Virus record (IMG/VR): IMGVR_UViG_3300032174_000007
Span: 1-62,323 of that record
Source of the DNA: a virus
Lineage: Duplodnaviria; Caudoviricetes
Length of the DNA: 62,323 bases
Strand: one strand, 5' to 3'
The position numbers and the translations under genes are program-made. The notes under the pieces were generated by a model. The model did not search any database and had not been told where the DNA came from. It saw only the letters and a list, made by a program, of their open reading frames with translations. Positions 32,487-57,131 of this stretch are shown here, piece after piece. Within the stretch, counting starts at the first letter, position 1, and each line of letters opens with the position of its first letter.

Positions 32487-32900
32487 TTAATTTGACTTTG
32501 GCACCGCGGCACTCCGCCCCACGCCAGCCACTGGGGCCGGTATCTCAGCCACCGTCGCCACCACTTTGTCGCTCTCGGTGTTCTTGGCAACGATCGGCGT
32601 GGCAACGATCCCTTTCACCTCCGGCATGTCGGCAACCGAGCTGATCAGCGTGTTGCGCGCCTCGGGGTCGGCCTTCACGGCGTCGATCTTGGCTTGCGGG
32701 CTGGCATTGTGCAGCGCGAGCGCCGTGGTCAGGTAGCCCGAACCGATGACGTTGAGGATCCCGGCCCAGGCGGTGACGTAGGGGATAGCCCCGTCCGGGA
32801 TCGCGTTGGTAAGATGGATGGTTCCGGTCGAGATGGCGCTGGCGATGAAGATCACGAGGCCGATCCAGAAATGGACGGAGAGGTCGAGGTTGATTTTCAT
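32487..32900 (-). CDS. Putative holin (2 TM)
   Basis: Two hydrophobic segments; lysis-module position. Confidence 0.55.
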   Translation of the reverse strand: MKINLDLSVHFWIGLVIFIASAISTGTIHLTNAIPDGAIPYVTAWAGILNVIGSGYLTTALALHNASPQAKIDAVKADPEARNTLISSVADMPEVKGIVATPIVAKNTESDKVVATVAEIPAPVAGVGRSAAVPKSN

Positions 32901-32901
32901 G

Positions 32902-33099
32902 TCACACTCCCGCGCCAGGATTGACGACGACAGGTCCTTTACCGATGCGGGCTTCGATGGCGTTGAGTCGCGCGTTGGTTTGCTTGCGCCAATCCGCGAG
33001 CGCGGCAAATCCGGCCTGCATGTCCTCCCAATCATTGCCGAGGGCGAACGGGCCGGAGGCGTTGGCGATGTCTTGGGCGAGCTTGTCGAAGGCGTCCAT
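32902..33099 (-). CDS. Small hypothetical protein
   Basis: AGGAG RBS; coiled-coil tail. Confidence 0.55.
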   Translation of the reverse strand: MDAFDKLAQDIANASGPFALGNDWEDMQAGFAALADWRKQTNARLNAIEARIGKGPVVVNPGAGV

Positions 33100-34238: not shown

Positions 34239-34907
34239 TCACACGTCAGCCGACGGGATCGCCGGTAGCGCCCATGTGGCGCGCAATTGCTCTGCGGTGC
34301 CATTGAATAGCGAGAGGTCGGCGCCGCTCTCAAGCCCATCAAGCGTATGCGGCAACGGGCCGATGTCGTCGCCGGTATACTGCCACAGGAACGGCTTGGG
34401 CCACGGTAACGTCTCGCCGTTCGCATCAATATTTCGCCAACGGGGACCATATTCACAACCCCAGAGTGGGTGGGCAGCAAGGAATTCCCGCACGGCCGCA
34501 CTCGCCTGTGGCGCCAGCGACTTGATCACGTCGCCCGAATAGAGCCCACAGCGTCGCCCGATCGCCTGGTCAACGCGATCGAGAAACTCGATCACCATTC
34601 CGAGCGTCATCTGGCCGGTGCCCCCGGGATTGCGCTCCAAGTCGAGCCAACAACTCGTTTGCGGCTCGGGTGACACGAAGGAGAGGAAGCGGGTGGCCTG
34701 TGTGGCTACCTTCTCGCCGGTGTTGAATGCGTAGGCGCCCCATTTGAGACCGACGCCGAGCGCAAGATCGCGCCGCTGGTGGTAGAGCGGATCGGTCTGC
34801 TCGTTGCTACGGGTGGCACGATGGATGACGCCCACGCATTCGGTGTGGGCGAGCTTCCCGAAATCGACCGGATTCTGCGATCCCATGTCGGCGACGTAGA
34901 CGGTCAT
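34239..34907 (-). CDS. GH25 muramidase endolysin
   Basis: GVIHRAT, WGAYAF, WLDLE, LWQYTGD, DLS.F.G. Confidence 0.85.
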   Translation of the reverse strand: MTVYVADMGSQNPVDFGKLAHTECVGVIHRATRSNEQTDPLYHQRRDLALGVGLKWGAYAFNTGEKVATQATRFLSFVSPEPQTSCWLDLERNPGGTGQMTLGMVIEFLDRVDQAIGRRCGLYSGDVIKSLAPQASAAVREFLAAHPLWGCEYGPRWRNIDANGETLPWPKPFLWQYTGDDIGPLPHTLDGLESGADLSLFNGTAEQLRATWALPAIPSADV

Positions 34908-35599: not shown

Positions 35600-35678
35600 A
35601 GTCCCTCATGCTGATCGTCATCCCGCAGATAGGCAACTTTTCTATCCCCACGCCGAGAAGCCAGCTGGAATGCTGCAA
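35400..35678 (-). CDS. Small protein with C-terminal TM helix (holin/antiholin-like)
   Basis: YVKWVVSAVPVAAALSSILKAWW. Confidence 0.5.
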   Translation of the reverse strand: MQHSSWLLGVGIEKLPICGMTISMRDYDEEVAKMPRRRKTTAQEIQQWRYGSEIDRRRHASRQSAIRYVKWVVSAVPVAAALSSILKAWWHG

Positions 35679-36316
35679 TTGAACGGGCTCGCGCCGACAT
35701 TCAATGTACTGTTCCCGCCGCTGGAATCAAACAGTGTATACGGGAAAGCCGGATTGCCGGCAAACACTGCCGAGATGTCGATGCCGCCGACGCCGGTTGC
35801 GGGATTTGCAGCACCGCTGTTGTTCCATATTCCGCAGTTGAGGCTGTACCACGCGAGATTGGCGGTCAGGTCAACGGCAAAGTCTGCTGGTTTTGCGCTC
35901 GAAAAGCTTTGGCAGGAGATCGGAAATGTATTGTGATACCAGAGCGAGCCTGATCGATTAGGCAGGCATCCGAAGGCAGCGGTAGTATTGGCGGCCGTAA
36001 GCACCTGTGCAGCTGTTGCAAATCCGATGTATGTGTTGGCTCCGAAATCCGCATTCTTGGCGATTTCGAAAATCCATTTGCCCGAGCTGTGCGATTTGGT
36101 CCCGCGCACGCCGGCCGTCGCGCTGGTCGGATCGGTGGCGATGAGATTGCCGCCCGACAACGTGACTGCTGCCGCCTTGTCGGTCGGGCTCCAGGTCGAG
36201 AAGGTTGCTCCCGCTGGCAGCATCCATGAAGTGAACAGAAATCCTTGCGCGAGCACCGAATAGGAGACGCAGGCGAGACCAATCGCCAGCAGCGCTCGCC
36301 TGACGAAAGGCATCAT
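35642..36316 (-). CDS. Signal-peptide SPRY/ConA-like beta-sandwich protein
   Basis: MMPFVRRALLAIGLACVSYSVLA|Q; TWSPTDK..TLSGGNL..SGKWIFE..PAGFSAW. Confidence 0.7.
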   Translation of the reverse strand: MMPFVRRALLAIGLACVSYSVLAQGFLFTSWMLPAGATFSTWSPTDKAAAVTLSGGNLIATDPTSATAGVRGTKSHSSGKWIFEIAKNADFGANTYIGFATAAQVLTAANTTAAFGCLPNRSGSLWYHNTFPISCQSFSSAKPADFAVDLTANLAWYSLNCGIWNNSGAANPATGVGGIDISAVFAGNPAFPYTLFDSSGGNSTLNVGASPFNCSIPAGFSAWG

Positions 36317-36993
36317 TGCAGCGCCTTCACCAGATAGGTCGAGACGGTGTTGATCCTGGTGATCTGCAGGAGGAAAACGTGGCCGTTGGTGGTATCGAAG
36401 GCATCCCCGGTGTTCGAGCCGACGGTGAAGCCTGTGAGTGTGAGCGTGCCGGCGCTGCCGTTGTTGGTCACCAGGATGAGGCACGAGGCGCTACTGGCGG
36501 GCGCGGTCAGGGTCGCGTTGCCGCCGTTGGTGTAACTCTCGAGCGGTCCCAAGCCGCAATCGATCGTGAAGCTGCCGGCCCCGGCCACGGGCGGGGTGAC
36601 GTTGGCCCCGCCGGAGAGCGTCTGGTCGGCGGCGGTCAGGCTCGCGAGCGCCGCGTTGCAGCCGATGGTGCCGGGCACATAGGCGAGCGCAGAGTTGGCC
36701 CCGGTGCAGGTCGGGATCGGGAGGCCGACGGCGGTGTTGAGATTGTTGCCCACCCAGGTCGTGTTGTTCAGGAGCGGAGGCAGGCCACCGGGACCGAGGA
36801 TAGCCTGCTGCACGAAGGCCGTCGAGGCGCAACGATTATCGCTAGTGCCGGGCGGAGCGGTCGGGCAGATGGTGTTCTGCGCCCAGGCGGGGAGGATAAC
36901 CGGCCGCACCGGCCCCGGCGAGCCCACGAAGAGCAACGCTAGCAGCCAGAGTATGAGGCCGGCGCCAAAGATGATATTTCGGAGTCTGACCAT
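36313..36993 (-). CDS. Signal-peptide tail-fibre-like protein
   Basis: Hydrophobic leader AWA|Q; PTAPPGTSD..ASTAFVQ fibre motif; 6 Cys. Confidence 0.7.
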   Translation of the reverse strand: MVRLRNIIFGAGLILWLLALLFVGSPGPVRPVILPAWAQNTICPTAPPGTSDNRCASTAFVQQAILGPGGLPPLLNNTTWVGNNLNTAVGLPIPTCTGANSALAYVPGTIGCNAALASLTAADQTLSGGANVTPPVAGAGSFTIDCGLGPLESYTNGGNATLTAPASSASCLILVTNNGSAGTLTLTGFTVGSNTGDAFDTTNGHVFLLQITRINTVSTYLVKALQ

Positions 36994-39392: not shown

Positions 39393-40283
39393 TCATGGGA
39401 GGGTGACAATCTTATACGTAAGCACAAGTTGGCCACTGCCATCGCCTGGTGTCACAGAATTAACATCAATCTGAAAACCAGTTCCGATCCCTGGTTGCGC
39501 TCCACTGGTCGATGTCGCATTTCCTGTCGTTCCAGTTTTGTAGCCGGCACCATTGCTGGTTAAGTGATACGTTAAGACCGCGCCACCACCGTCAACAGTA
39601 TCAACGACATACCTTGCAAGAATATCTGTTACAAAACCATAGCCAGTTACTTGCCCTGTATCCCCAATTACATATCCTGTTCCGGCATTTCCAGCAGTAA
39701 CACTGCTCGTCAGGATCGCCCCATATTTTATGTAATCCTCTACAGAATTGCTGATAACAAGAGATTGATTTGAAATATCAGAAAAAAGAGCGGCACCACC
39801 AGGGGTGAAAGCAGTTATCGGACCATAACCACCCGGAGTAGATGAACTAAAAACTACCGATGAAGCTATAACCTCAAATAGTCCTCCGTCGCCTGCAACC
39901 GTGCGCCCACTCCCATTTTGATAACTTAAAATAATATTTCCGGCATCAGCCCCTGGGCTTCCTGTTGGTACTGTTCCAACGTGATTATACCATTCCACAA
40001 AAATCGGAACGATCGCTTTTCCTGCTCCCGGAGCAGCTAAGACAGTCTGTGGCGCAGAGAATAGATGATTGATCTGACTAGCCGTCAAAGAAACTGTTGT
40101 AGTAAACGTCGTCAAGGGCACCTTGAAATTCGCCCCGGTCTTGAACCCGACGAGGTTTTCCGTCCCGCTCGGCGTGCCAAGCAGCGGAAAGTCTGTGCTG
40201 TTGCTCCACGGCACATTGGCCGCGATGGCAACGCCAACAGCGATAGTAGCAACCGCAAGCAGGCTAACCAGGAAGCGCTTCAT
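39393..40283 (-). CDS. Signal-peptide putative fibre/adhesin, chimeric GC
   Basis: MKRFLVSLLAVATIAVGVAIA|A; GTGY..GD/GAGY repeats. Confidence 0.65.
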   Translation of the reverse strand: MKRFLVSLLAVATIAVGVAIAANVPWSNSTDFPLLGTPSGTENLVGFKTGANFKVPLTTFTTTVSLTASQINHLFSAPQTVLAAPGAGKAIVPIFVEWYNHVGTVPTGSPGADAGNIILSYQNGSGRTVAGDGGLFEVIASSVVFSSSTPGGYGPITAFTPGGAALFSDISNQSLVISNSVEDYIKYGAILTSSVTAGNAGTGYVIGDTGQVTGYGFVTDILARYVVDTVDGGGAVLTYHLTSNGAGYKTGTTGNATSTSGAQPGIGTGFQIDVNSVTPGDGSGQLVLTYKIVTLP

Positions 40284-40562: not shown

Positions 40563-41273
40563 TCATTGCCATGCCGAGAATCCTGATGGAACGGTAAAAG
40601 TGAACTGCGAAGAAATGGTCCTTAGCGTTCCGGTTGGAGTGGCCGAGTTCGCAGTAAACGCCGCAAAGGCCGCATTGGTTGGAAACAATGTGCTGATATT
40701 CATGCCCTGGGAATTGGTTGCCGGATTTCCGGGGTTGCTACTGCCATACCAACTACCTGCTCCGTTCTTGTCAAACCACGCTTTGCTATTCCCAAAATCG
40801 ACCGCGACACGCACGACATCGCCAGCCGCAAAGCTCGTGAAACCCGTAGATGCCGAGAACGAACCATTGAACCAAACGCCAGGATTTATGACGTAGATGA
40901 TCGCCGCACCAGTCGCGCTGCTGGCGATCGTGCTCAAGGTCGCTGCACCGGTAGCTATCCCCACCCCCGTATCGCCGCCAGCAACGGTGCCACCAAGAAG
41001 AACCTCGAAATACAGCTTGCTTGCATTGTGGCTGGTCGTATTCCGAACGGCACCATCACTAGTGTTTGTGCCAGCTGCCGTCAGATTAGCGTTCGACAGC
41101 GTGATGTTGGCCGACTTGTCCGAAGGGTTCCAATTCGACGCCACTTGCGCCGCAGCAACGGTTGGGGTGCAAAAGCCGGGCGAACAGCCATTGAACTGCG
41201 CCTGCGGCGACTGCAATCCAAGTATTGCAAAGCAGAGGGTGAGGAAAGCCGCTACCGAGACTCTGGCGATCAT
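40563..41273 (-). CDS. Signal-peptide SPRY/ConA-like protein, paralog of 35642..36316
   Basis: PQA|Q; WNPSDK..TLSNANL..KLYFEV..PSGFSAW. Confidence 0.7.
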   Translation of the reverse strand: MIARVSVAAFLTLCFAILGLQSPQAQFNGCSPGFCTPTVAAAQVASNWNPSDKSANITLSNANLTAAGTNTSDGAVRNTTSHNASKLYFEVLLGGTVAGGDTGVGIATGAATLSTIASSATGAAIIYVINPGVWFNGSFSASTGFTSFAAGDVVRVAVDFGNSKAWFDKNGAGSWYGSSNPGNPATNSQGMNISTLFPTNAAFAAFTANSATPTGTLRTISSQFTFTVPSGFSAWQ

Positions 41274-41740
41274 GTGAGATCAGTCCCAGTCAGGTAGAAA
41301 TCACAGGTCGCCGCCGTTCCCTGCCCGGTAGTCAGTGACAGGTAGACCGTGTTGACGGTATAGCGCGTGGTAGCGATGTTCGCCGCAAGCGTCAGCGAGA
41401 GCAGGATCGTTGCGCTACTGAGCGCGGTATAGACCTGCGCGGCAGCAACCAGCGCTGTCCCCCCTTTGCTGGCGGCCGGATAGACGCCGCCGACCGCGAG
41501 CGTCAGAGATGCGCTGCAATTGGTGACCTTGATCGCAAGCGGAGTCCATGCCGTGATCGACGAGGGGATTGCGCACGCCTGATCGGCGGTAGAGTTGAAA
41601 TTGGCCGCACGGATCGAGCATAGCACGCGATCGGTATTGACTGCCGTGTTGGTGATCGTTGCCGAGCCGCCGGCAAATTGCGCCAGCGCGGGCGCAATTG
41701 CGAGCCAGAAGGCGAAGAGAAAGGAGGCAATGCGGTTCAT
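41270..41740 (-). CDS. Signal-peptide beta-sandwich protein
   Basis: MNRIASFLFAFWLAIAPALA|Q; 4 Cys. Confidence 0.7.
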   Translation of the reverse strand: MNRIASFLFAFWLAIAPALAQFAGGSATITNTAVNTDRVLCSIRAANFNSTADQACAIPSSITAWTPLAIKVTNCSASLTLAVGGVYPAASKGGTALVAAAQVYTALSSATILLSLTLAANIATTRYTVNTVYLSLTTGQGTAATCDFYLTGTDLT

Positions 41741-41744
41741 ATCA

Positions 41745-43226
41745 TCACCAGCGCGTACAGGAGAACTTATGCCCGGTCGTCGCAGCGATAACCGAGAGTG
41801 CCGTGTTCATGCCGAAACCCATCGGAGAGCTATAACTCGACAAACCCGAGAAGGTCGTAGCAGCCGGCGCGGCGAGCGGATAGGAGGCGGTTGCTGCAGC
41901 AACTGCCGTGCCGGTAAAGGAAATCCATAGCGGCTCGCCTGAGCCCGCACTGGCGTCGATATTGGCAATGGTGAAACCGTGGATGGCGGCATTTGCCGTG
42001 AAGGCATTCTGCGCCGTGCCGCCGGAAGTAATTGTGCCAGAGCAATCGGTCGGGGTGGTGTTGACATTGCCGGTGACGGTGCCGATCGCGGCGGTTCCGG
42101 CCACCAGCCCCACGGTCGAATCGTTCGATACGGTGACGCGCGGGATACCTGAACCGCTCGCGCCCGTGCCGGTCACGGTGTTGGCGCCGCCAAACTGCGC
42201 GACGTTGACGGATTGATTCGCGGGCAGCGCCACACTGTCGGGTGTGACCAGAAGCTTGGTCATCGACGCAATACCTTGGACACTGATCACATTAGCAGAG
42301 GCAGTGCCGGCAGTCCCCGGCGCGCTGCCTGCAATCGTGGTAGTGTCCTGCCCGACCGCCACGCGAGCGGAGCCGGTGCCCACGGCCCCCGCGCCCGCAA
42401 GCGCCGTTGCAGCGTTTACCCCCACAATGGCCACGCCGTTAGTCGTGCCCGGCGTGGTCTGATCAACCCCGACCTTGCCGATGAGATTTGTTCCGGCCGG
42501 CACCGGGCCTTGCACGGCCGCAAGCACCTGCGAATCAAATACGCGGGTCTCGCCTGCGGTCGTCAGCGACAACGGATCGGTCTGGCCGGTCGTATAGGTT
42601 GGTGCCCCTGTCGTGACGGCGCCTTGCACCAGCGGACCAAGTTGGCCGGAAGTCGTCGAACCTTGCGCATACCCAGCCGCTCCGCCGCCCGCCTTGAGGT
42701 TCACCAGAAGATTCCCGGCGTTGTCCATCTGCAGCGGCGAGGCATTCCCGGGCGTGATGGTCGTGGGCGTGGTCTGAAACTGTGCCCCCATCAGTATCGA
42801 GTTGGCCGGGCTCGCCGCGTTCTGTCCTACAAAATCAAAGACGCCGCCGATGTTGCCGACGATGCGCGAGGTCCAATTGCCGGATTGTGAAACCGCCGGG
42901 ACGTTCGTGATGAAGGCGTTCATGCCAGGCACAAGCACAGCACCGGGCGAGGTGCCGTAGTTCGCCATGGCGCCGAGCGTACCGCCGCCCCAAGCGGTGA
43001 TGCTGGAGACCCACGGCACGGTGCCCTGGGTGACCGATCCGCCGCCCCCGCCGCTCGCATTGGTGCAGAGGTTGCCGTGGGCATCGACCGTGAACGGCCC
43101 CGGGTTACCCGCATTGAAGGTCGGCGAGTTGCATGTGCTCACGACCAAGCCGGTCGTGTTCTGCGCCTGCGCTGGGAGCGCGAGCAAGCCCAAGAGGATC
43201 GACGCGGACACAAGATATCTGCGCAT
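41745..43226 (-). CDS. Signal-peptide fibre-like protein
   Basis: MRRYLVSASILLGLLALPAQA|Q; G/T/A-rich, PAGTNLIGKV; 4 Cys. Confidence 0.75.
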   Translation of the reverse strand: MRRYLVSASILLGLLALPAQAQNTTGLVVSTCNSPTFNAGNPGPFTVDAHGNLCTNASGGGGGSVTQGTVPWVSSITAWGGGTLGAMANYGTSPGAVLVPGMNAFITNVPAVSQSGNWTSRIVGNIGGVFDFVGQNAASPANSILMGAQFQTTPTTITPGNASPLQMDNAGNLLVNLKAGGGAAGYAQGSTTSGQLGPLVQGAVTTGAPTYTTGQTDPLSLTTAGETRVFDSQVLAAVQGPVPAGTNLIGKVGVDQTTPGTTNGVAIVGVNAATALAGAGAVGTGSARVAVGQDTTTIAGSAPGTAGTASANVISVQGIASMTKLLVTPDSVALPANQSVNVAQFGGANTVTGTGASGSGIPRVTVSNDSTVGLVAGTAAIGTVTGNVNTTPTDCSGTITSGGTAQNAFTANAAIHGFTIANIDASAGSGEPLWISFTGTAVAAATASYPLAAPAATTFSGLSSYSSPMGFGMNTALSVIAATTGHKFSCTRW

Positions 43227-43290
43227 AGCGGGTCTCCTGAGACTAGAGATGGTTGGAATCTATTTTAGCCTCGCCGTCAAGAAGTCTTTG

Positions 43291-44757
43291 TCAGGGAACC
43301 CCGGCAAAGATGATCTTGTTGCGGATTTGCGTCGGCTGCACGATCGAGTGGGCGTTCCCGGAGCCGAAGGTGATGGGGTTCATCGTGGGCGTATAACTTG
43401 GGATCGTTACACTGGCGAAGCCCGCAGCGAGACCCGAACCTGTGAACGGGCCAACCGCCCCACCGGCCGCTACGACCACCTGCTGATTCGTGTTGATGGT
43501 GCCTGGCACATAGCTGTTGCTCGCCGTCGGCGTTATCGAGATCACCGGCAACTGCCCCGCCGTCAGGGTCTGGCTTTTTGCTCCACAGGAGGCATTCAGG
43601 TAGGCAGGATTCCCGACGAGGCAGAAGGTGGTGTTGAGATTGACGTTGCCGGTATCAAGGCCGGCATAGACCACGCCAGCGGAGTTCGGCAAAGCAAAGG
43701 TGCCATCCTGGGCAGTGCCGTAGGGGAACAGCTGGCATTGGGTCGCGTTGGCCGAAGCGTTGCCACCGGCAATGGTGATGCTGGTGCCTCCGACCGAGGC
43801 GATGGTCTGGCCGGTCGCGATGGCTCCGGATCCCGGGCTCTCGATGATCCAGCCGGTGCCGAGACCAGGATAGGAGGTCGAACCTATCCCGGAGATGGTC
43901 GAGGACCCCATGGTGATGGTGCAGGGCACGACCGGGGCGATGACGGCGAGAAGAGCCGAGTAGGTCGTGCGGCTGATGGCGGCGCCGTTCTCGAGCTTCC
44001 AGTTGGTCGGGGCCGCGAAGGTGGGCCAGTCCACCTCCATCCCGATCGGCAGTTGCGAGACGGTGATGCCCAGAAGGCCCTGCGCCGCTGCGATGGTCGG
44101 GGCGGCCACCACCGGCTGCATGGCAGAAGAAACCAAGGCGGAGCTCGGCTGCGCTGCGATCGGATTGCAGCCGGTCGAATCAAAGCCAATGAGGTTGTTG
44201 GCGCGCTGGCTTGCCTCTGGGAGAAAGCCGAGCGGGTTGCATGTGTCGTCCACCGGAACCTGCAAGGCGCGGGCAACCTGGGTGGCGACCCCTTGGAATT
44301 CCAGCACCACCAGGTCAAGTGCCTGCTCCACCGCCTGCGGGAAGAAACTGCCTTGATTCCGCAGCGGCGTGGTCTGTAGGAGCGGCACGGTACGGGTGAT
44401 GGCGAGCTGAGTCCCCATGGCGATCGGGGAGCCTGAGAGCGGATAGGTGACGGTGCCGCCGATGCCCCAAATCTGGCCAGCCGGCGGAGCGTTCAGGGTG
44501 AGCGTGTAGGTGGTTGTGCCGAGGATTGTACGGGCGCCGGAGGCATCGATATAGGTCACCACGATGTCGTTCGGCGAGACCCCTATGAACGGGAAGTTGA
44601 ACACGGTCGCCGAGCCGTTGCCGAGCGCGGTGACGGAGGAAACGGTCGAGGAGACGGTGGCGCGGGCGGATATTGCATAAAGCCCCACAAGGATCGCCAG
44701 CACGGGGCCCAGAGCAACCGCTGCTCCAATGATTGCGCGTTCGAGAATCTGGGTCAT
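43291..44757 (-). CDS. Tail fibre (T7 gp17-like N-domain + tail collar) with N-terminal signal peptide
   Basis: ARA|TVSST..GNGSATVFNFPF..TR..Q..L.NQG.F.P..VE.ALD; collar PIG..APTNW..NG.AISRTTYSAL. Confidence 0.85.
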   Translation of the reverse strand: MTQILERAIIGAAVALGPVLAILVGLYAISARATVSSTVSSVTALGNGSATVFNFPFIGVSPNDIVVTYIDASGARTILGTTTYTLTLNAPPAGQIWGIGGTVTYPLSGSPIAMGTQLAITRTVPLLQTTPLRNQGSFFPQAVEQALDLVVLEFQGVATQVARALQVPVDDTCNPLGFLPEASQRANNLIGFDSTGCNPIAAQPSSALVSSAMQPVVAAPTIAAAQGLLGITVSQLPIGMEVDWPTFAAPTNWKLENGAAISRTTYSALLAVIAPVVPCTITMGSSTISGIGSTSYPGLGTGWIIESPGSGAIATGQTIASVGGTSITIAGGNASANATQCQLFPYGTAQDGTFALPNSAGVVYAGLDTGNVNLNTTFCLVGNPAYLNASCGAKSQTLTAGQLPVISITPTASNSYVPGTINTNQQVVVAAGGAVGPFTGSGLAAGFASVTIPSYTPTMNPITFGSGNAHSIVQPTQIRNKIIFAGVP

Positions 44758-44981
44758 GAGAACCTCTTGCTTACGACCGGCCCGGTGAAAAAGGGAACGC
44801 CCAACTGATCGCGCATGATCGAGAAGTCGATGCGGAAGTCCTCCCGCTCGGCCGCGCGCATCAGGTCCATCAGCTCGCCCAAGGTCTCGATGGCGCGAGT
44901 TTTGTAGTCGGCGGCTTTCTCCTCGGCCGTGGCGGGAGTGTTGCGCCGGGCATCGAGGTCTACGATACGGTCGTCTGGCAT
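44754..44981 (-). CDS. Hypothetical protein
   Basis: Coupled to tail fibre start. Confidence 0.6.
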   Translation of the reverse strand: MPDDRIVDLDARRNTPATAEEKAADYKTRAIETLGELMDLMRAAEREDFRIDFSIMRDQLGVPFFTGPVVSKRFS

Positions 44982-44982
44982 G

Positions 44983-45011
44983 TTGACATGTCCACTTGGT
45001 TAGCGTACAGA
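44983..45011 (+). promoter_or_regulatory. Sigma70-like promoter, copy A
   Basis: TTGACA-N17-TACAGA; shares CATGTTGACA..TAGCGTACA with copy B. Confidence 0.6.
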
Positions 45012-45015
45012 GTGG

Positions 45016-45231
45016 TTGGTAAATGGGAGAGGACTTGTGACGGAAATCATCTATCGTAGCCCATTCTTTTGGGAAAAAATCGAGAGAGAGGTTGAGTTTC
45101 CATTCAGCGTCGGTGTGGGCGACATACTAACAGTTGGGCAGTTCCGACACATCTTCGAGCAGGGTTATGATTTCTCTAGCTCGGAGGAACTGATGGCCTA
45201 CCTAAAGCAGGAGAAGATTTATGGACAATGA
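45016..45231 (+). CDS. Low-GC hypothetical protein ending in a cassette L end
   Basis: Stops at GGA CAA TGA. Confidence 0.5.
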   Translation: MVNGRGLVTEIIYRSPFFWEKIEREVEFPFSVGVGDILTVGQFRHIFEQGYDFSSSEELMAYLKQEKIYGQ

Positions 45232-45616
45232 CCGCTCTGGAAGCCCGACTGGTGATCAGAGGCTGGCACTGTGGCGCGAGATAGAAGCGCGTCGAATAGA
45301 ACGAAATCTAAGGCTACCCACCGAGCAGGCGGCCATCAATGCGATGTTTGAAGCCCACGAACGCTTACGGGATTTTGGGTGGCGAGATATCATCTATTGT
45401 CCGAAGGATGGCACTGTTTTCCAGGTCATCGAGACAGGATCAACCGGCATCTTTGATTGTTATTATTCCGGAGAATGGCCGGACGGTTGTTGGAATGTGA
45501 TGGACGCCAACGACGTTTATCCATCATCAAAGGGGCCAACGCTCTTTCGGCTCAAGCGTGCTGAGACCCCTGACCGCTCAGAGCCGACACAACCATCGCA
45601 CAAGCCTTGATCCAAA
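45215..45616 (+). mobile_element. L/R cassette with 129-aa cargo ORF (45221..45610)
   Basis: ORF MDNDRSGSPTGDQR..GWRDIIYCPKDG..PDRSEPTQPSHKP. Confidence 0.9.
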
Positions 45617-45632
45617 AAGAAGCCGCCACGCC

Positions 45633-45842
45633 ATGACCGAGGACCAAACCCGCCGCCTGCTGCGCGAGGAATGCCAATCAGCTGGCAGCATGCGGGCCTG
45701 GGCACGGAAGTATAACCTCTCCCCCGCCTATGTCTCCGATGTGCTCTCCGGGCGGCGCGACATCGGGCCTTCGATCTGCGAGGCCTTGGGGCTGGAGAAG
45801 GTCACGCACTATCGGGTCCGGTTTTACAAGAGGAAGGCATGA
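45633..45842 (+). CDS. Cro/XRE-like HTH protein
   Basis: SMRAWARKYNLSPAYVSDVLSGRR..ALGL. Confidence 0.8.
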   Translation: MTEDQTRRLLREECQSAGSMRAWARKYNLSPAYVSDVLSGRRDIGPSICEALGLEKVTHYRVRFYKRKA

Positions 45843-46697: not shown

Positions 46698-46703
46698 TCC
46701 AAA

Positions 46704-47979: not shown

Positions 47980-47983
47980 AACC

Positions 47984-49463: not shown

Positions 49464-52400
49464 TCAATGCACCGCCGTCGCCTTCCCCTGCAGCGGCGCC
49501 CGCTTCACCTCGATCGCCTTCCTGATGATGCTTTCCGGCCCGCTCGCCGACTGCATCATGATCATGTTGGCCGCCCGCTCATGCGCGGCCGTGATCTCCT
49601 TGTGCATCTCGATCGCCTTCAAGGCATCCGGCATCTGCTGGAATCCCGGGACGGCGACCAGCCGGTTGAGCGCCATCTTGGCCATCTTTCCCGCCACCCG
49701 CGCGTAATCGTGGTATTGCTGATCGGTCAGGGGCACGCCCCTGATCTTGCGCGCAAGCCTGCCCACGCTCAGATGGATCGCGTCCATCGCCTTGACCACC
49801 GGATCGTTGGCGTAGCTCGGCAGCGGGCCGGCGGTCGGGATCGGTTCGCCGAACATGTCGCGGCGGGGGAATAGGCCTTCCGAGACGAAGGGAATTTTCG
49901 CTCGCGCGGAATCGAAGATGGTGCGCACCTCCCTTTGGTACGGATCAACAACCCGGGCAACCTGGCCCAAGCCGACCGAGTACGGAATCCAATTGGTCAC
50001 GAAGTTGCGGATATATTGGCCACCGAACTCCTCCGGGTGGAACACGGCATCGAGCATATCCTTGGCGCCGCGCATCCAGGTTTCGTTGAGGATCGACCGG
50101 GTGATCCCTTGCATGAACGCGACAGCGAGCTTATCGCCATCTTCCTCACCCCATCCGGCGGCAGTCTCGTACATGTTGGCGGCAAAGCCCATCAACATTC
50201 CAAGGCTTCCGAGGTGGGCGTAGGGAATACTGAGCCCCCCAATCTGGATGGTGTTCGGCTTGTGGTTCAAGAGCCAAACCTGCCGTTGCCTTGGATCGGT
50301 CGGCCCGTCGCTGGTCATCAGCCCTTCGGCCATCATCAGCACGCTCGCCCCCATCAGGCCCATACCCGCCGCAACCTTCCCCATCTGGATGTCGAAGTCG
50401 GCACCGCCGCGTCCTAGATTGGCGCGAAACTCCTTATCAAAGATGCCGATCGGCGTGCGCTCGATGATGGCGTTGCGCGTGATCTGGCTGCCGATCTTCA
50501 TGAATGGCACAATGATCTTGGCAAGGAGGTTGTTATTGGTGAAACGCACTAGTCCAGCCCATTTGCTGTGGTAGTCGGTCGGCGCCATGTAGAGTTCTTT
50601 GAGCGCGTCACGGCTGGCGCTCGCCATCATGGCATCGGTCGGGTGTGCCGTGAGTTGCGCGATTCGGCTCGGCATGTCGGCGGCAGCCTCCCCCATTGCC
50701 TGGCGGTAGGCGAGACCTTGAATGTTCTGCTCATAGCGCAGCGCTGCGAAGAACGAATGGATAGCCGCCACACCCTTGACCGGAAGCCCGATCGCGGCCC
50801 CGATCGCGCCTGGGATCGGATTGATGTTGTGCTCGGAGAACTGCACGGTCGGTGCCCGCTGCCCCGGCAGGTTTATGGTCTGGCCGCTGTGCCAGGCGTC
50901 TACCCCAGCCCGCAAACCATCCACACTGCCCTTGAGGAGTCCGTAGAGCTGCGCGCCGGCTTCCCCGAGATAGACCCGCTTGCCAGCGGTATCGTAACCC
51001 AGGGCCTCGCGTATAGCGCCCGAGGCCGCCGAATAGGGTATCTCGACCAATGGGGTGAAAACCGCGTTCAAAGCGTTGCCAACCGCATAGCGCATGTGCG
51101 TGATCGGCCCGGAAATGAGTGCATTGACGTAGTAGAAAATAACCGCCCGCTTGATCTTTCCTCCCGCCGTATCGGCAATCAATCGCGATACGTTTGATGG
51201 TGTCGGAAGATGCTGCCCGTACTGCGCCATCTCCTTGATCTGAAACAGCGTCCGCCCGGTATTCTCCTGCAGGAACCGCGAGAGGTCGGCTGCCTCCTTC
51301 TGGCCGCCGATGATCAGGTTGAGAGCGCGGCCGGCACGTCCCCATTCGGCCGTGGCCTGCGCGACCTTGCCCTGGATCATCTCGTGGCGGGCAATCGCTG
51401 CGGCGAGCGCCATCAGGTCGTGCTCGTCCCCGGTTGCCGCCTGCTTCATCAGGTCGCGCACGTCGGTCGCCGACTGGATCAGCAGCCGCTTGGCGACGAT
51501 GATTTCCTGCTGGTTGAAGGCGTCCCCGATCTTCTTCAGATCCAGGAATGCCGGGTCCATGCCCATGGCGTCGGCGAGGTCGAGTGCCTGCCCGTCCGTG
51601 ATGACGTGGCGGCGCTCGGCCATGAAGCCGCCGGTACGCTCGGCTGCTTCTCGGATTGCGATGTCGAAGTCGTCCGGACCATTGAGCTTGTCGAGCCGGA
51701 TGTTGCCGGCCTTGTCGGTCGCGCCGGAATCCGAAGGGCCAAATCTTACGTTGGGGTCTGTTGGGACTTCGCTTCGAGCGACCTTTGATGCACTAGCGCC
51801 TTCGCCCTCCCCCTCACCTCCGCCCGCGCCGAGCGCTCCAGGTTGCGCAGCAACTCCCGCTTCTCCACCGACAGGTCCGGGCGCATTGCCATCACGGTCA
51901 GATTGCGCACCTCCTGGCGGGCCGCCTGGAGCTCCTTCTCCTGCTGGTTTGCGTCCGGTATCGGCAAGGCGGTTTTCCTCTTCTTCGGGCGCATGGGTGG
52001 CAGCAATCCTATCACGCTCGGACTGCGCCGTCACCATGGCGGGGTAAACTTCCTGCGGCGGCAATCGTTCCGCCTCGGCTTCATGAATGTCGGCAAAACC
52101 TTGGGCGGTTGGCCGCTCGGGCGTGATAATCGCCTCATGCTCGCGCGAGGCCAGAAGGCGACGATACACGCCCCGCATTTCGTCGCTGATGCCAACGAAT
52201 TCCTTGCCGGCTCCAGTCTCCCTGGCTTCCTTGATCAGATTGTCGATGGTCTTGTAGATTTCCAGGAGCCAATCGCGGAACTTGGCGAAGACCTTCGCCA
52301 TCGCCTGACTCGGGGCGCGGCCTTCCATCATAAATATTTCAAAGCCGCGGGCAAAACTCTCATGATGGCGCTCGCGGATGTCCTCGGCTTTATCGACCTT

Positions 52401-55400
52401 GAACCAATCCAGCACCGTCTTGGCGTCAGCTTTGAGATCGGGCGGTGCGTCAGGATCCCGCGCATCGTCCATCAGTTCTTCGAGCCATTTGTGGGCGGGT
52501 TCATGCAGGAGGGTGGAGGCGTTGGCGTCCCTGAAATAGGTGATTATCGAGGTGCCATCGTTAAGGAAGCGGATTTTGCCGCGCTTGGTCTGGAACAGGG
52601 GGAAGCCTTGGGAGGTGGCGGCCTCGCGGAGTTCGGGCGTGATGTCGAGGGTGTGGACTGGGGCAGTTCCTTCCATACCGACCGTTTCATCGAAGGCATA
52701 GCTACCGCCGGGATATTCACTTTCCACAAGATGTTGCGCGTAGCTTTCATCGTGAATGCCGCGCTCGACAATCTGCCCGGCGCGATCGCGCACAACGAAT
52801 GGAACATCGATGTCACGCTGATCGAAAGTGGGAACACGGGCCTCACCAACCTTCGCCCCAAACTTCTTGCCCAGCTTGCTCCCCGCCGCCGGCAGTATCT
52901 TGTCGTAGAAGCCCTTCATGCCTTCGCCGCCGACCTTGAGGTCGAGGCCGGAAAGTTCGCGATGAATGCCGATCTTTTGACCGGCGAGTTCGCGGTTGCG
53001 GTTGATCTCCGCAGCTTTGTTGTTGAAGTATCGCTCGGCGTATTCCCTGGCCTCTGCCTCGCTCTGGACGGTGCCCTTGCCGATATCTACTTGGCGGCCA
53101 TCCACATTTCGGACGATGTACTGATGCTCGGTCTGCTCGACCGTCAGATACTCCTTGTAGACGTGAGGCAGCATCTTGATCTCGGTCGGCTTCTGGTCGA
53201 GCAGCTTCTGCGCTACGTCCTTGCCGATGAGATCGGGCAATTCCTCAGCGGTCGCTTTGCGGCGCACGACCACCTCGCCGCTATGATCCTTGGCCTGGAA
53301 GTCACCCGTTGTCTCGTTCCAGCGGACAGATTGAATCTGCTTGCTCAGGTCATACCGTTCCGCATTGGTATCCCCGCTGTCCCAGGAGAGACGGTCGTAG
53401 CCGTTCTCGGCGGCGTAGCGGATCATCCTTTTCAGTGCCAACTCGGGCCACGTGGTCTTGAAGGGGGCGTCGGGGACGCCTCCATGCGTAGCGCGATCAC
53501 GCTCGCGCATAAGTTCGCCATGCCGTCGGTTTAGATCAGGATGCTTGAGCCATGCGTCATGCCAATCGCCGGGTGAATTGGCATTTATCGACGGCTCGCG
53601 GTGCAACAACTCGGTGCGCGTATCGTCTACGTCGCGGTCGATCTCCGCGACCGATCGGCCTTCACCAGCGTAACCCTGCTTCCTCCCCTTCTGGTGCCAG
53701 TCGCTCTGGATCTCTGCCAGATGCAGCGTCTTCTTTCCGTCGATGACGCGATCATCAAATCTCACATGGGCGAGGACGTTGGGCTCGTCCCAGTGGGAGG
53801 ATTTGAATTGATCCTCTCGTGGGCGCTCCATCAGCCGATAGAGTTCATCGCGTTCCTCTTGGGTTGCGTGATCAACGAAGTTGCCGCCACGTGGTTCGTA
53901 TTTTTCCGCGAGCGCATCGCGAAACCGCTGTGCTTCACTCGGTCCCGCTGGCAGCGTCAGCAGCAGCTCGCGATAGTTCTCACCGCCGGGGAGCCTATAG
54001 GTCTCGAATTTCGTGCTGCCTTGCGTGTTCCAGCCGGACGGTCCGGTCTGGCGATGTTCGACCTCGCGCACCTCGATCGCGTTCGCGCGCACGTAATCCG
54101 CGATCTCCTGCTTGGTCACTGAGCCTTTCTGCTCCTTGAGCCAATCCGGCAGGCCGAGCCAGTCCATTTCCTCACTTTTGACGCCGGGCGTGTTCTTGAG
54201 CGTGGCGAGCCATTGCTGCGGGGAGGCTTTTTCTTGGCGTGCAGATTCGACCGCGCGGGCGACAGCGGAGTAGGACCACGGCACTTGCCGGGCCTGGAAC
54301 AGCTCGCGTTGCTTGGCCGCATCCCCGAACAACCCGATGTCCATCGGCTTCTGCTCGGCCTTGGGCTTCAATGCTTGATCGGCGCGCCGCTGCGCCAGCT
54401 CCGCATCGCTGATCCGCTCGCCGCCGGGGAGAACTTGCTGGCCCTCCGCCTCTCTTTCAGCAAATAATCCAGGCTCGACCGGCCTGCGTGCCGCTTGCGC
54501 AAACTCCGGTTCCTCCATCACCGCCCGTTCATAGGCCACGCCCGGGTCGGTCACACCCTCGCGGTCCATGATCTCGACCGCGCGATCCTTGATCTTCTCC
54601 GACACGCTTGCCGGGTCGATGCCGGCCGCCGCCAAGTGGGTCTCAAGCTTCCCCATCATCCGGTGCAGCTCTTCGTCCACGTCGATCGCCTGCGCCGGCT
54701 CGAAGCCATGGATAAACTGCTTTTCCCCGCGCGCCTCCTTGTCGATCAGGTCCAAGAGCTCGACGTGCCCGACCTTGGCCTCGGTGCCTTCGATGTCGGC
54801 GCGGTCGAACATGTGGCCGCTTTCCTTCAGCGCCTCCACGGCATGATCCAAGTCCATACCGCTCTTGCGCAGCAGCGGCCCAAAGCCGCCACCGATCATC
54901 GGGTTTTTGCCGAGTATTTGCCGCAACTCTGGCGTCGGCTTAAGACCACCCAACGCGGCCAATTGCTCAAACAGCGAACGCTCAGCCTCCGGCTTGAGCG
55001 TGCGCCTGCCACCGCGGGCTCGGGCTTCCGCCCCCGGTGCCCGCGCCCCTGTGCCCCGGTCGGCTGCGAGGTCGCGGTAGCGTGTACCTTCGCCACGGTA
55101 ACGGAGAGGATCAGCCGCATAGAGTTCGGCGGCCGTGCCTTTCTTGCCCTCAAAGCGGAGCGCCCGGTCGGCGTACCGCTGCGCATTGATGGCGGCGGCG
55201 GCTTGCGCCTGCTCGGCCGGAATGCCTATGGCCACAAGCTTCCTCTCCTCCGCGTCTGCAATGGTCGTGAACATCGCTGGCGTGGCTATGGACTGGCCTT
55301 GCGGCAGTTGGGGTGCCGCTGGTGCCCCAGGAAGGACTGGTGTACCAGCGGCCCCGCCAGCCGGCGCCCGGGCGCTCTCCAGCGTTCCAGCACCGGCTGC

Positions 55401-57047
55401 GGATGGAATTTCAGCTTTGCTCACGGACTTGTGATGATCGACGGCGGCGTTGGGATCGACGTGAGGATCGGGCGGCGGATTCTTGACCGTCTCGTGCTCG
55501 ATCTTGGCGAGGTAGCCGTCGATTTCCTCGGTGTAGGCTTTCCAGGAGACGCCATCGGCTTCGACTGCGGCGCGCTCGGCCGGGGTGGCGCGGTTGGTAT
55601 GGGCGGCGTCGTAAGGCATTCCAGCCACCATGGCGGCGCGCTCATCCTGTTCATGGATGGTCAGGTATTTGTGCAGGTTGGCGGGATTGCCGTCCTTGTC
55701 CTTGAGGATAGGCGAGAATTCCGGGATGCGCGGGTCGATATAGGTGACGCCAGGGGTATCCTTGCTGGCAACCGCGCCGGAGCGCACGTCATGGGTGGTA
55801 TCGACGGCCCCGACCGCGCCCGGCTCCTGTTTCACGTGAAACAATGTGGGCGCGATCGTCCGCTCGGCGTCCTTGTAGGTCTTGGCCACCTCGGGGGCGA
55901 GCTCGGCCAGCCGCTTGTCGATGCCGGCGAGGTTGGCCTCGATCTCCTGGCGGGTTGCGGCCTTCTCAGGCGTCAGGGCGGGTTCCGCGGCGAGGTCGTT
56001 CGCCCAATTGCGGAATGTGGCCTGCCGCTCCTTGAGCGCGTCGTATTCGCCGAATAGGGGAAAGTCGAGCTGGCGGGCGACGGAGTGGATATCGGCGACG
56101 GCCGGAGTGACGGGCGCGGGAGCCGGCGGGATGGGTGCCCCTTCCTGGGGTGTGATGCCGGCCTTCTCCTGTGCCTCCCGCTCGGCCTGCAACTGCTTGA
56201 TGGCCATCAGCGCCCGATCCACCTCGGGCACATCTGCGGTCTGGGCGGTGCCTTTCCAGGCCGCCTCGCCGCCCGGGCCGATGATCTTGAGATAGCGCGC
56301 CGCCTCGATCTGATGCGGCCCGGGTGCCTCCAGCATGGCCCCCTGGAGCATGATGTTGATGTCTTGGGCGAGCCGGCCGGGGGCGCCTCCTGCCAAGCCA
56401 GCCTGATCCGCTAGTGCCGCAATCTCGCCGGCCGCACCGCCGATCACCATGCCCGGGGCGCGGATGGCGCTCTCGGCTCCGGCCAGCAGCGCCTTGGCGC
56501 GCGGGCCTAAATATCTGAGGATCGGAAACCGCTCGATATCCGCTGGCGTAATCCCCGGCGGCTTTTCGCCGAAGCCTTCCTTGGCGGCTTCCCAGGTGGT
56601 CTCAAGGAACCTGCGGGCCTGCTCCTGCTGCTCGGGTGAAGCCGCGTTGGTGAACGGATGCACATGCGGCCACAGCAGGACTTGGCTTGCGACCTTGGCG
56701 AAGCTGTTGCGGCTTGTCTCGTAGTCCTTCCAGGCCCCGGAGAGTTTCATGAAGTCTCTGGTTTCATCGGAAGGTGGTGGGGCGCCCCAATTATCCTTGG
56801 CACCTTGGCCGAAGGCGTCGAGCACGCGGGCTTGCGGGGCGACGGCGGCGTTTCCGAAGATCATATCGGCGATCGGGGAGGCACCGTGCAGCGGGCGCGG
56901 AGTGGATGGTGCGGGCTTGTCGGGGAACAGCGTCTCCACCTCGGGGAGGGGCTTGTCGGGAAAGAGGTCGTTAACGTCCGGTAGGCCGGCGGCGGCCTGA
57001 GGCGGCGCGGCAGGCGACGGAGAGGTTGAGAGGGTGGGGTCGGCCAT
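49464..57047 (-). CDS. Giant internal virion (ejection) polyvalent protein
   Basis: ~2527 aa; HExxH metallopeptidase (STLLHEPAH..ESFARGFE), EIQSDW domain, LPD38-like C-terminal region. Confidence 0.8.
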   Translation of the reverse strand: MADPTLSTSPSPAAPPQAAAGLPDVNDLFPDKPLPEVETLFPDKPAPSTPRPLHGASPIADMIFGNAAVAPQARVLDAFGQGAKDNWGAPPPSDETRDFMKLSGAWKDYETSRNSFAKVASQVLLWPHVHPFTNAASPEQQEQARRFLETTWEAAKEGFGEKPPGITPADIERFPILRYLGPRAKALLAGAESAIRAPGMVIGGAAGEIAALADQAGLAGGAPGRLAQDINIMLQGAMLEAPGPHQIEAARYLKIIGPGGEAAWKGTAQTADVPEVDRALMAIKQLQAEREAQEKAGITPQEGAPIPPAPAPVTPAVADIHSVARQLDFPLFGEYDALKERQATFRNWANDLAAEPALTPEKAATRQEIEANLAGIDKRLAELAPEVAKTYKDAERTIAPTLFHVKQEPGAVGAVDTTHDVRSGAVASKDTPGVTYIDPRIPEFSPILKDKDGNPANLHKYLTIHEQDERAAMVAGMPYDAAHTNRATPAERAAVEADGVSWKAYTEEIDGYLAKIEHETVKNPPPDPHVDPNAAVDHHKSVSKAEIPSAAGAGTLESARAPAGGAAGTPVLPGAPAAPQLPQGQSIATPAMFTTIADAEERKLVAIGIPAEQAQAAAAINAQRYADRALRFEGKKGTAAELYAADPLRYRGEGTRYRDLAADRGTGARAPGAEARARGGRRTLKPEAERSLFEQLAALGGLKPTPELRQILGKNPMIGGGFGPLLRKSGMDLDHAVEALKESGHMFDRADIEGTEAKVGHVELLDLIDKEARGEKQFIHGFEPAQAIDVDEELHRMMGKLETHLAAAGIDPASVSEKIKDRAVEIMDREGVTDPGVAYERAVMEEPEFAQAARRPVEPGLFAEREAEGQQVLPGGERISDAELAQRRADQALKPKAEQKPMDIGLFGDAAKQRELFQARQVPWSYSAVARAVESARQEKASPQQWLATLKNTPGVKSEEMDWLGLPDWLKEQKGSVTKQEIADYVRANAIEVREVEHRQTGPSGWNTQGSTKFETYRLPGGENYRELLLTLPAGPSEAQRFRDALAEKYEPRGGNFVDHATQEERDELYRLMERPREDQFKSSHWDEPNVLAHVRFDDRVIDGKKTLHLAEIQSDWHQKGRKQGYAGEGRSVAEIDRDVDDTRTELLHREPSINANSPGDWHDAWLKHPDLNRRHGELMRERDRATHGGVPDAPFKTTWPELALKRMIRYAAENGYDRLSWDSGDTNAERYDLSKQIQSVRWNETTGDFQAKDHSGEVVVRRKATAEELPDLIGKDVAQKLLDQKPTEIKMLPHVYKEYLTVEQTEHQYIVRNVDGRQVDIGKGTVQSEAEAREYAERYFNNKAAEINRNRELAGQKIGIHRELSGLDLKVGGEGMKGFYDKILPAAGSKLGKKFGAKVGEARVPTFDQRDIDVPFVVRDRAGQIVERGIHDESYAQHLVESEYPGGSYAFDETVGMEGTAPVHTLDITPELREAATSQGFPLFQTKRGKIRFLNDGTSIITYFRDANASTLLHEPAHKWLEELMDDARDPDAPPDLKADAKTVLDWFKVDKAEDIRERHHESFARGFEIFMMEGRAPSQAMAKVFAKFRDWLLEIYKTIDNLIKEARETGAGKEFVGISDEMRGVYRRLLASREHEAIITPERPTAQGFADIHEAEAERLPPQEVYPAMVTAQSERDRIAATHAPEEEENRLADTGRKPAGEGAPGGPPGGAQSDRDGNAPGPVGGEAGVAAQPGALGAGGGEGEGEGASASKVARSEVPTDPNVRFGPSDSGATDKAGNIRLDKLNGPDDFDIAIREAAERTGGFMAERRHVITDGQALDLADAMGMDPAFLDLKKIGDAFNQQEIIVAKRLLIQSATDVRDLMKQAATGDEHDLMALAAAIARHEMIQGKVAQATAEWGRAGRALNLIIGGQKEAADLSRFLQENTGRTLFQIKEMAQYGQHLPTPSNVSRLIADTAGGKIKRAVIFYYVNALISGPITHMRYAVGNALNAVFTPLVEIPYSAASGAIREALGYDTAGKRVYLGEAGAQLYGLLKGSVDGLRAGVDAWHSGQTINLPGQRAPTVQFSEHNINPIPGAIGAAIGLPVKGVAAIHSFFAALRYEQNIQGLAYRQAMGEAAADMPSRIAQLTAHPTDAMMASASRDALKELYMAPTDYHSKWAGLVRFTNNNLLAKIIVPFMKIGSQITRNAIIERTPIGIFDKEFRANLGRGGADFDIQMGKVAAGMGLMGASVLMMAEGLMTSDGPTDPRQRQVWLLNHKPNTIQIGGLSIPYAHLGSLGMLMGFAANMYETAAGWGEEDGDKLAVAFMQGITRSILNETWMRGAKDMLDAVFHPEEFGGQYIRNFVTNWIPYSVGLGQVARVVDPYQREVRTIFDSARAKIPFVSEGLFPRRDMFGEPIPTAGPLPSYANDPVVKAMDAIHLSVGRLARKIRGVPLTDQQYHDYARVAGKMAKMALNRLVAVPGFQQMPDALKAIEMHKEITAAHERAANMIMMQSASGPESIIRKAIEVKRAPLQGKATAVH

Positions 57048-57131
57048 TTGGATCAAGGCTTGGCTTGTGGGTGGATCAACTCTGAGCGGTCAGGGATCGT
57101 TGTGGGGACGATTGCAGAAGTGTCGTGCAGT

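Follow-up and report, generated by a model that had tools for sequence, protein, structure and literature searches.

The virus record IMGVR_UViG_3300032174_000007 of IMG/VR, from an uncultured phage of soil type and analysed here over its whole length of 62,323 b (henceforth the window; rated 100% complete), encodes on its minus strand a 488-aa tail fibre (43291..44757, stop included), in which a 33-residue hydrophobic leader resembling a Sec-type export signal precedes the tail-docking domain. We propose that this is a real tail fibre made as a pre-protein, which would be exported via the host Sec system, folded oxidatively, and docked on the particle at holin opening or lysis; we place the probability of this reading at about 0.55. 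The leader was first noticed in an original prediction, which took it as a case of a virion component passing through the periplasm. The part of this claim that stands is a leader that reads as translated, is conserved in Sec-type form, and is borne by the sole recognizable docking fibre of the phage; export, cleavage, the disulfides, late docking, and incorporation into the virion are what we infer from these sequence features.

The form of the leader and of its start is as originally described. Residues 1–33 (44659..44757, minus strand) read MTQILERAIIGAAVALGPVLAILVGLYAISARA, and the domain that follows opens with T-V-S-S at residue 34, with the predicted cut between residues 33 and 34. The n-region has one Arg and one Glu ahead of the core (net charge 0), and the core is a run of 24 uncharged residues with a mean Kyte-Doolittle hydropathy of 2.2, i.e., longer than typical cores, with about 10 of some 23 core residues being Gly, Ala, or Ser. 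The leader ends in A-R-A (positions −3 to −1), wherein Ala31 and Ala33 satisfy the small-residue rule. Its ATG (44757–44755) overlaps, as ATGA, the TGA of a translationally coupled upstream ORF of 75 aa (44754..44981, minus strand) and has the ribosome-binding site AAGAGG 5 nt before it (44763..44768, minus strand). The only start-type codons between codons 1 and 52 are GTG at 19 and 24, both of which fall in the hydrophobic stretch and lack a ribosome-binding site; codons 25–51 hold none, which leaves no ATG or other start at the leader/domain junction and excludes initiation at the TVSS domain. Homologues of the 75-aa gene occur upstream of both a leader-bearing (L001) and a leaderless (L021) fibre, and this gene is therefore not tied to the leader. 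A promoter and terminator scan of 40400–45400 gave counts no higher than chance.

The tail-docking (particle-binding) domain with its neck helix (residues 34–170; 44248..44658, minus strand) was recognized through PHROG, sequence, and fold matches. Residues 34–168 align with profile positions 2–128 of phrog_1640 (E 2e-19), and 13 further PHROG families, annotated as tail or unknown, align in the same register; because these tail profiles begin to align at residue 34 with their position 2, the 33-residue extension is a real one. The nearest sequence relatives of the domain are the N-domains of epsilon15 gp20 and Carin1 Dpo31. The former shows 33.9% identity over fibre residues 46–168 and is leaderless, since its gene starts only 13 codons ahead of the residue aligned to fibre residue 46; the solved D1 domain of the Carin1 tailspike Dpo31 matches with E 2e-11, its residue 13 corresponding to fibre residue 45. 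An AlphaFold 2 (AF2) monomer model built with 21 homologues is weak overall (predicted local distance difference test score, pLDDT, 59), with a beta domain at residues 40–122 (pLDDT 66–83), and its top Foldseek match is the fibre N-terminus on the solved Carin1 tail (8ck1_B; E 1.2e-7, template-modelling [TM] score 0.63 by target). The N-terminus of T7 gp17 is also recovered (7boz_b; probability 0.98, TM 0.47, with a weak E-value of 0.027), as are those of other T7 or T7-like tail fibres (7ey9, 9jz0, 8vbx, 7y1c), again with weak E-values. The label of T7-gp17-type fibre given in the original prediction is thus borne out by fold and PHROG family but not by Pfam, where PF03906 (Phage_T7_tail) is not matched and Collar is the sole family at E ≤ 1.

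The leaderless podovirus docking domains, viz., those of epsilon15 gp20, Carin1 Dpo31 (PDB 8ck1, 28lx), and T7 gp17 (PDB 7boz, 7ey9), therefore share the N-domain of the window fibre by sequence and fold, and their genes lie by tail or ejection genes as in the relatives of the window; the domain begins at residue 2 in those proteins, whereas it begins at residue 34, behind a secretion-type leader, in the window fibre. When compared with phage records the fibre matched 15, every match being confined to the N-domain, and PHROG or Pfam scans of the 57 ORFs of the window yielded no second docking-domain protein, making this the only recognizable candidate for a tail-docking protein of the phage. 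The N-domain alone, searched against 1.84 billion representatives, gave 9496 matches at E ≤ 1e-3; among the best 150 of these, 132 begin at the domain, 10 have a hydrophobic leader, and eight have a short non-hydrophobic extension consistent with alternative or miscalled starts. The docking domain of leader forms is 45–60% identical to that of leaderless fibres, and the C-terminal body behind it is swappable among relatives.

Gene position is shared by the two kinds of fibre. At the leader-bearing loci L005, L006, L008, L009, L017, and L023 the fibre gene lies approximately 50–600 b after the gene for the giant ejection protein, and the same spacing is seen at the leaderless loci L012, L018, L019, L022, and L031, where it again directly follows that gene. 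The window differs in that a 4.4-kb plus-strand block (45016–49460) separates the gene for the giant internal (ejection) protein (2530 aa; 49464..57056, minus strand) from that of the fibre. This block encodes a helix-turn-helix (HTH) protein, a PD-(D/E)XK nuclease, and small ORFs, and interrupts a structural gene order that is contiguous in relatives. The expected docking site of the fibre would be formed by the tail tubular proteins B (565–3513) and A (4725–5513), both encoded on the minus strand.

Conservation of the leader was assessed on a set of 96 homologous proteins from a search of 5.8 billion, 46 of which have an N-terminal extension, along with 40 more loci from scans of viral and genome contigs, 10 with a leader, which together provided 54 distinct leaders; signals were called with a heuristic of our own (not a validated predictor) together with the −3/−1 rule. 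These leaders range from 19 to 35 residues in length, and their longest uncharged run has a median of 15.5 and a maximum of 28. All 54 have a Lys or Arg ahead of the core, and the n-region is net positive in 53, the window leader being the exception. Position −1 is occupied by Ala in 52 and by Ser and Gly in one each, position −3 by Ala in 37, Val in 10, and Ser in seven, and position −2 by Arg in 38. Every leader ends immediately ahead of T-[VI], while leaderless relatives begin M-T-[VI], and the residue at −1 is never one whose codon could serve as a start. The persistence of this architecture and junction through 54 distinct leaders indicates that the leader is beyond chance. Methionine aminopeptidase removes Met before Thr; given the exact junction, a signal-peptidase cut would therefore generate the same mature N-terminus as Met removal does in the leaderless fibres. 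This exactness is, as far as sequence can speak, the strongest argument for removal of the leader and normal use of the docking domain. Leader-bearing homologues are also present in bacterial chromosomes, namely those of Bradyrhizobium sp. PMVTL-01 and Pseudolabrys taiwanensis.

Two other kinds of signal were considered and rejected: a lipoprotein signal processed by signal peptidase II, as Thr rather than Cys stands at +1 throughout, both for the window leader and across the full set of 54, and a twin-arginine translocation (Tat) signal, as the window leader has no RR, with KK or a lone K/R being common among its relatives. As a separate observation, 20 of the 54 leaders (e.g., P0010, P0012, P0033, L005, and L009) contain an acidic-aromatic stretch of the form E/A-x-x-D-L-x-W-L followed, after about four residues, by R-A.

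A tree of the N-domain was computed from 126 rows (56 leader-bearing and 70 leaderless), leaving out ten rows, namely fragments or out-of-register sequences (P0022, P0026, P0086, P0092), loci whose domain start was not located (L015, L029, L030), and loci with a broken frame (L020, L034, L040). The window falls within a clade of 34 rows, all leader-bearing (support 98), and a second clade of 28 rows combines 22 leader forms with six leaderless ones. Sister pairs of opposite state occur with good support in this second clade, viz., L017/L021 (100), L009/P0072 (96), and P0075/P0077 (95). The state changes at least six times on the tree, versus a mean of 41 with shuffled labels, and therefore the leader is, judging from this topology, repeatedly gained or lost on a working fibre.

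The remainder of the fibre bears on the compartment in which it would fold. The six Cys of the original description are found at residues 173, 197, 279, 341, 379, and 391, with none in the leader. Behind the neck lies a collar-type domain (residues 243–357; 43687..44031, minus strand) into which a beta unit of about 65 residues appears to be inserted, with Cys279 and Cys341 on either side. Pfam Collar (PF07484) matches residues 243–273 through profile positions 5–35 of 57, at 24.9 bits versus a cut-off of 24, and the rest of the profile appears to have been displaced by the insert in alignment A1, which comprises 21 full-length relatives of the same architecture, 18 of them with a leader. The motif NWKLENG, also as first described, lies at residues 252–258 within this match; the original prediction had contrasted it with GWLLCDG as the usual consensus. 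The collar of T4 gp37, the sole match of this region among PDB sequences, aligns weakly (E 0.5) and likewise lacks the consensus Cys, and the absence of the latter from the window fibre is therefore not remarkable. The collar region (240–350) is the best modelled part of the AF2 prediction (pLDDT 77–95), with Cys279 and Cys341 on strands 276–281 and 338–344. It is followed by a variable distal part with Cys379 and Cys391 and a conserved C-terminal end (43294..43686, minus strand), as delineated in A1, with low pLDDT.

Of the 18 leader forms in A1, 16 retain the six Cys columns; P0015 and P0016 are both without the final two Cys, a joint loss which suggests that Cys379 and Cys391 form a pair. 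A survey of homologues for covariation between leader and Cys pairing had been proposed in the original prediction, and at the level of simple counts the two go together: the six Cys of leader forms compare with none or one in five distinct leaderless full-length forms of the same architecture (none in P0025, P0028, and P0029; one in the L002/3/7 type and L004). Across the 126 rows the median is six Cys in leader forms versus two in leaderless ones, and rows lacking Cys altogether number 0 of 56 versus 9 of 70, with a Mann-Whitney p of 6e-6 for leader against Cys count when relatedness is ignored. Within the window, the Cys count of the mature part is even for each of the eight leader-bearing proteins (6, 4, 4, 2, 0, 6, 4, 2) but odd for seven of the 13 Cys-containing proteins without a leader, and Cys density is 1.29 per 100 aa in leader-bearing proteins versus 0.59 in leaderless ones. 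This pattern is consistent with oxidative folding of the leader-bearing set.

Putting these together, we propose the following route. The 33-residue leader would act as a Sec-type signal directing the chain into the periplasm, and its long hydrophobic core would probably favour co-translational targeting, comparable to that described for the DsbA leader (PMC9594773). Signal peptidase I would cut after A-R-A33 to expose Thr34, as in the leaderless relatives. The fibre would then trimerise in the periplasm, where the host Dsb system could form three disulfides, with 173–197, 279–341, and 379–391 as the predicted pairs. Heads with tail tube and ejection proteins would meanwhile be assembled fibre-less in the cytoplasm, and the two compartments would join only at holin opening or lysis, when the free N-terminal domain could dock on the tail.

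Several observations weigh against this route. Among the 54 leaders, that of the window departs most from the canonical form, with its n-region of net charge 0 and a 24-residue uncharged run that has the length of a membrane span, and could be an uncleaved anchor. The D-L-x-W-L-type stretch between core and cut site in the relatives noted above is atypical of signal peptides, although it is absent from the window leader. The association of leader and Cys count is not significant on the five phylogenetically independent pairs available (sign test, median p 0.5–0.6), so that the covariation proposed earlier fails at this level; moreover, leaderless fibres with other bodies reach 14 Cys, and leader forms with one or three Cys occur. 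At L021 a leaderless fibre sits beside exported-type fibre-like proteins, and a small protein family encoded after the fibre gene in relatives, with a homologue at 38663–39442 (minus strand) of the window, has no signal. Finally, since the leader flips between close relatives, the docking domain evidently functions by either route and therefore cannot depend on export.

Two alternatives, each of which we regard as unlikely, accept export of the protein and differ in its fate. In the first, the leader would be an uncleaved or slowly cleaved signal-anchor, or one akin to those of signal-arrest-release (SAR) proteins, which would hold the fibre at the inner membrane, on its periplasmic side, either up to lysis or for good. 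The length of the uncharged core (24 residues in the window and up to 28 in relatives, against the median of 15.5), its Gly/Ala/Ser content, the net charge of 0 of the n-region, the modelling of the leader as one continuous helix (residues 2–30) by AF2, and the acidic-aromatic stretch conserved in 20 of the 54 leaders would all suit such a tether. However, positions −3 and −1 are small in each of the 54 leaders, all of which end directly before the residue that is N-terminal in the leaderless forms, and an anchor would need neither feature. A SAR domain is a weakly hydrophobic, Gly/Ala-rich N-terminal span that stays uncut; the window leader has the Gly/Ala/Ser content given above, and the conserved A-x-A junction speaks for cleavage.

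The second of these, to which we give no more weight, is that of an exported non-virion protein which acts in the cell envelope during infection or lysogeny (e.g., by masking receptors, excluding superinfection, or serving as a decoy), while the particle uses another receptor-binding protein. It draws on the leader-bearing homologues in the Bradyrhizobium and Pseudolabrys chromosomes, on the several exported-type fibre-like neighbours without a docking domain, and on the pairing of such proteins with a leaderless fibre in L021. The docking domain itself argues otherwise, being 45–60% identical to that of leaderless fibres and having its native N-terminus recreated at the junction, as do the fibre position that the gene holds after the ejection-protein genes and the lack of any other docking-domain gene in the complete genome.

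A further alternative, in which the leader is translated without export and the protein stays in the cytoplasm, its helix serving membrane-proximal assembly, trimer nucleation, or as a pro-peptide for another protease, is in our view improbable. It would account for the fact that trimeric fibres fold fast whereas Sec requires unfolded chains; a prohead-protease-like gene is indeed present (11876–12892), and the leaderless relatives show the domain to be workable from the cytoplasm. Yet the combination of Lys or Arg in the n-region, core, and A-x-A end across the 54 leaders is that of Sec and signal peptidase I, and the even Cys counts of all leader-bearing proteins fit an oxidising compartment. 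An annotation artefact, with a later start (e.g., at the in-frame GTG codons 19 or 24) and no leader made, is hardly credible, and a mis-start was rejected, in light of the lack of any start at the junction or in codons 25–51, the lack of ribosome-binding sites at the GTG codons, the AAGAGG and stop-start overlap of the ATG, and the 54 leaders that are all open in frame and hydrophobic.

The proposal of an exported, late-docking fibre has partial parallels in known systems. P22 tailspikes can be added in vitro to tailspike-less heads, showing that podovirus docking can be completed outside its normal cytoplasmic setting, as the proposed route requires; however, P22 normally docks its tailspike in the cytoplasm, and the P22 tailspike has no leader. 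Among tailed-phage proteins that are not virion parts, the SAR endolysins use host Sec signals, as is proposed for the window fibre. Another such protein, the T4 antiholin RI, has a cleavable signal peptide (PMC8385771). In filamentous phages, the M13 adsorption protein g3p, which like the window fibre serves in host recognition, has a signal sequence and is handled by SecYEG (PMC8310372). However, assembly of filamentous phages takes place at the membrane, with extrusion and with no cytoplasmic particle, whereas the window phage is tailed, with a DNA-packaged head of cytoplasmic build. Among the titles and abstracts covered, which excluded subscription journals, we found no paper on a Sec signal on a tailed-phage tail fibre, and the terms ‘signal peptide’, ‘tail fiber/fibre’, and ‘periplasm’ returned nothing in a term search of the Tunturi phage paper (PMC11924767). 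The novelty thus lies in the addition of an export signal to a familiar fibre family, implying an assembly route that we did not find described in this literature.

A precedent for signal-like N-termini on structural proteins of tailed phages appears to be offered by the cultured podovirus phi18:3 of Cellulophaga (NC_021794), whose proteins gp085–087 are annotated in the record as structural or tail proteins ‘based on experimental MS/MS proteomics analysis’. Their N-termini are signal-peptide-like, with a Lys-rich start and a hydrophobic core, whereas those of nine other phi18:3 structural proteins are not. This phage belongs to Pachyviridae and has a host of the phylum Bacteroidota, unlike the window phage, and no sequence relation was found between gp085–087 and the window fibre. 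We see even odds for a more general proposition, i.e., that tailed-phage assembly has an extracytoplasmic branch, in which fibres and fibre-like neighbours are Sec-exported, fold oxidatively with the aid of host machinery in the periplasm, and join fibre-less particles from the cytoplasm only after holin opening. Assembly would then be completed, and the particles rendered infectious, upon triggering of the holin; the leader trait would switch between close relatives and recur in unrelated phages, as suggested by the mass spectrometry-annotated Cellulophaga phage proteins.

In the textbook account of tailed-phage morphogenesis all assembly steps occur in the cytoplasm. If true, the proposed route would add to it a compartment and a timing rule, viz., docking only at holin opening, and would provide a defined path by which structural proteins of phages reach the disulfide catalysts of the host. 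It would further predict new host dependencies (Sec, signal peptidase, and Dsb) and new targets for defence, and would matter where receptor-binding proteins are engineered or produced heterologously. The window presents a clean test case, with one docking fibre, an exact junction, and relatives of both kinds, helped by the leader-bearing homologues in prophages of the cultured Bradyrhizobium sp. PMVTL-01 and Pseudolabrys taiwanensis.

As for the phage itself, among the products encoded by the window are an epsilon15-type major capsid protein (PF20911), Bbp16 cement and Gp10-like proteins, a terminase, a portal of T7 type, the tail tubular proteins A and B, and internal virion proteins, including an SLT-bearing protein of 867 aa in addition to the giant protein of 2530 aa. 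The epsilon15-type capsid together with the T7-type portal, tail tubular proteins, and internal proteins therefore identifies it as a short-tailed phage of the epsilon15/BPP-1 kind. It has no close cultured relative, its portal being at most 33% identical to that in any phage record. GcrA and several methyltransferases point to a probable alphaproteobacterial host: a C5 cytosine methyltransferase gene (3667–4827, minus strand) lies between those of tail tubular A and B, overlapping the end of the former, and three further methyltransferases occur with the GcrA homologue at 22445–26549. The large terminase is encoded in two minus-strand ORFs about 150 b apart, one for the N-terminal domain (18310–19161) and the other for the nuclease domain (17367–18158), a split (17367–19161) that could reflect a frameshift, an intron or intein, or a sequencing error. 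The giant internal protein and the SLT-bearing protein (57889–60492, minus strand) contain no Cys in 3397 residues, compared with an average of 0.59 per 100 aa in the other leaderless proteins of the window; this may be linked to the passage of these ejection proteins through the tail into the oxidising periplasm at infection.

With our heuristic, signals at the annotated start are found only in the block 31662–44757, with none at the annotated starts of the head, tail-tube, ejection, and replication genes of the window; calls at internal codons of tail tubular B and an HTH gene were taken as false. All genes of this block described here are on the minus strand. Next to the fibre gene are those for a 493-aa protein with a signal peptide and four Cys in its mature part (41745..43226), a 156-aa protein with a signal peptide and four Cys (41270..41740), and a 236-aa protein of phrog_10080 (40563..41273) with two Cys, a weak SPRY match, and a hydrophobic N-terminus that was recognized on reading the sequence and missed by the heuristic. 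The next, of 296 aa (39393..40283), has a signal peptide and no Cys, and with a GC content at third codon positions (GC3) of 0.41, against 0.73–0.86 in its neighbours, looks compositionally foreign and recently acquired. Further along are a 226-aa protein with a long leader, six Cys, and a fibre-knob-like body (36313..36993) and a second phrog_10080 protein with four Cys, whose signal peptide starts from an internal Met (35642..36316; codon 57 of the listed ORF 35642–36484). The two phrog_10080 proteins are paralogous and may be lectin-like.

The lysis region comprises a GH25 endolysin (34239..34907), a holin-like protein with two membrane segments recognized by inspection from an internal Met, from which the heuristic also called a signal (32487..32902; listed gene 32487–33035), and, at its end, a signal-peptide-bearing protein that resembles outer-membrane beta-barrels and matches PF13505 below the cut-off (31662–32420). 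As the endolysin has neither signal nor anchor, a large-hole holin is to be expected, which bears on the mixing of compartments proposed above.

Atlas look-ups of two of the neighbour proteins gave leads and nothing firmer; those for 36313–36993 were PF26209 and Mtd_N, placing it close to clusters that bear a phage tail-fibre C-terminal domain and Mtd_N (scores 0.88–0.90). In the related locus L017 a leader-bearing neighbour (13704–15542) has the Peptidase_S74 fibre chaperone domain, the only family recovered by PHROG and Pfam among ten neighbour proteins of related loci. The Atlas leads and this domain suggest that the exported-type neighbours are fibre-like. The large gene after the leader-bearing fibre has a signal too in L001, L009, L010, L011, and L013, and a member of this family also lies behind the leaderless fibre of L021.

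Further features of these neighbours can be noted. Five of the seven other leader-bearing proteins of the window (41745–43226, 41270–41740, 40563–41273, 36313–36993, and 35642–36316) have a predicted mature N-terminus of Gln after A-x-A, while the fibre keeps Thr. The signal-less small family directly follows the fibre gene in L005, L006, L008, L009, L012, and L013, whether or not the fibre has a leader, and its copy in the window (38663–39442) is internally duplicated, with residues 32–140 and 150–259 both matching. In L010, the 436-aa protein downstream of the leader-bearing fibre (14183–15493, plus strand) has a twin-arginine-like S-R-R-K-V-L followed by a hydrophobic run, which suggests that Tat export may also be used in the fibre module.

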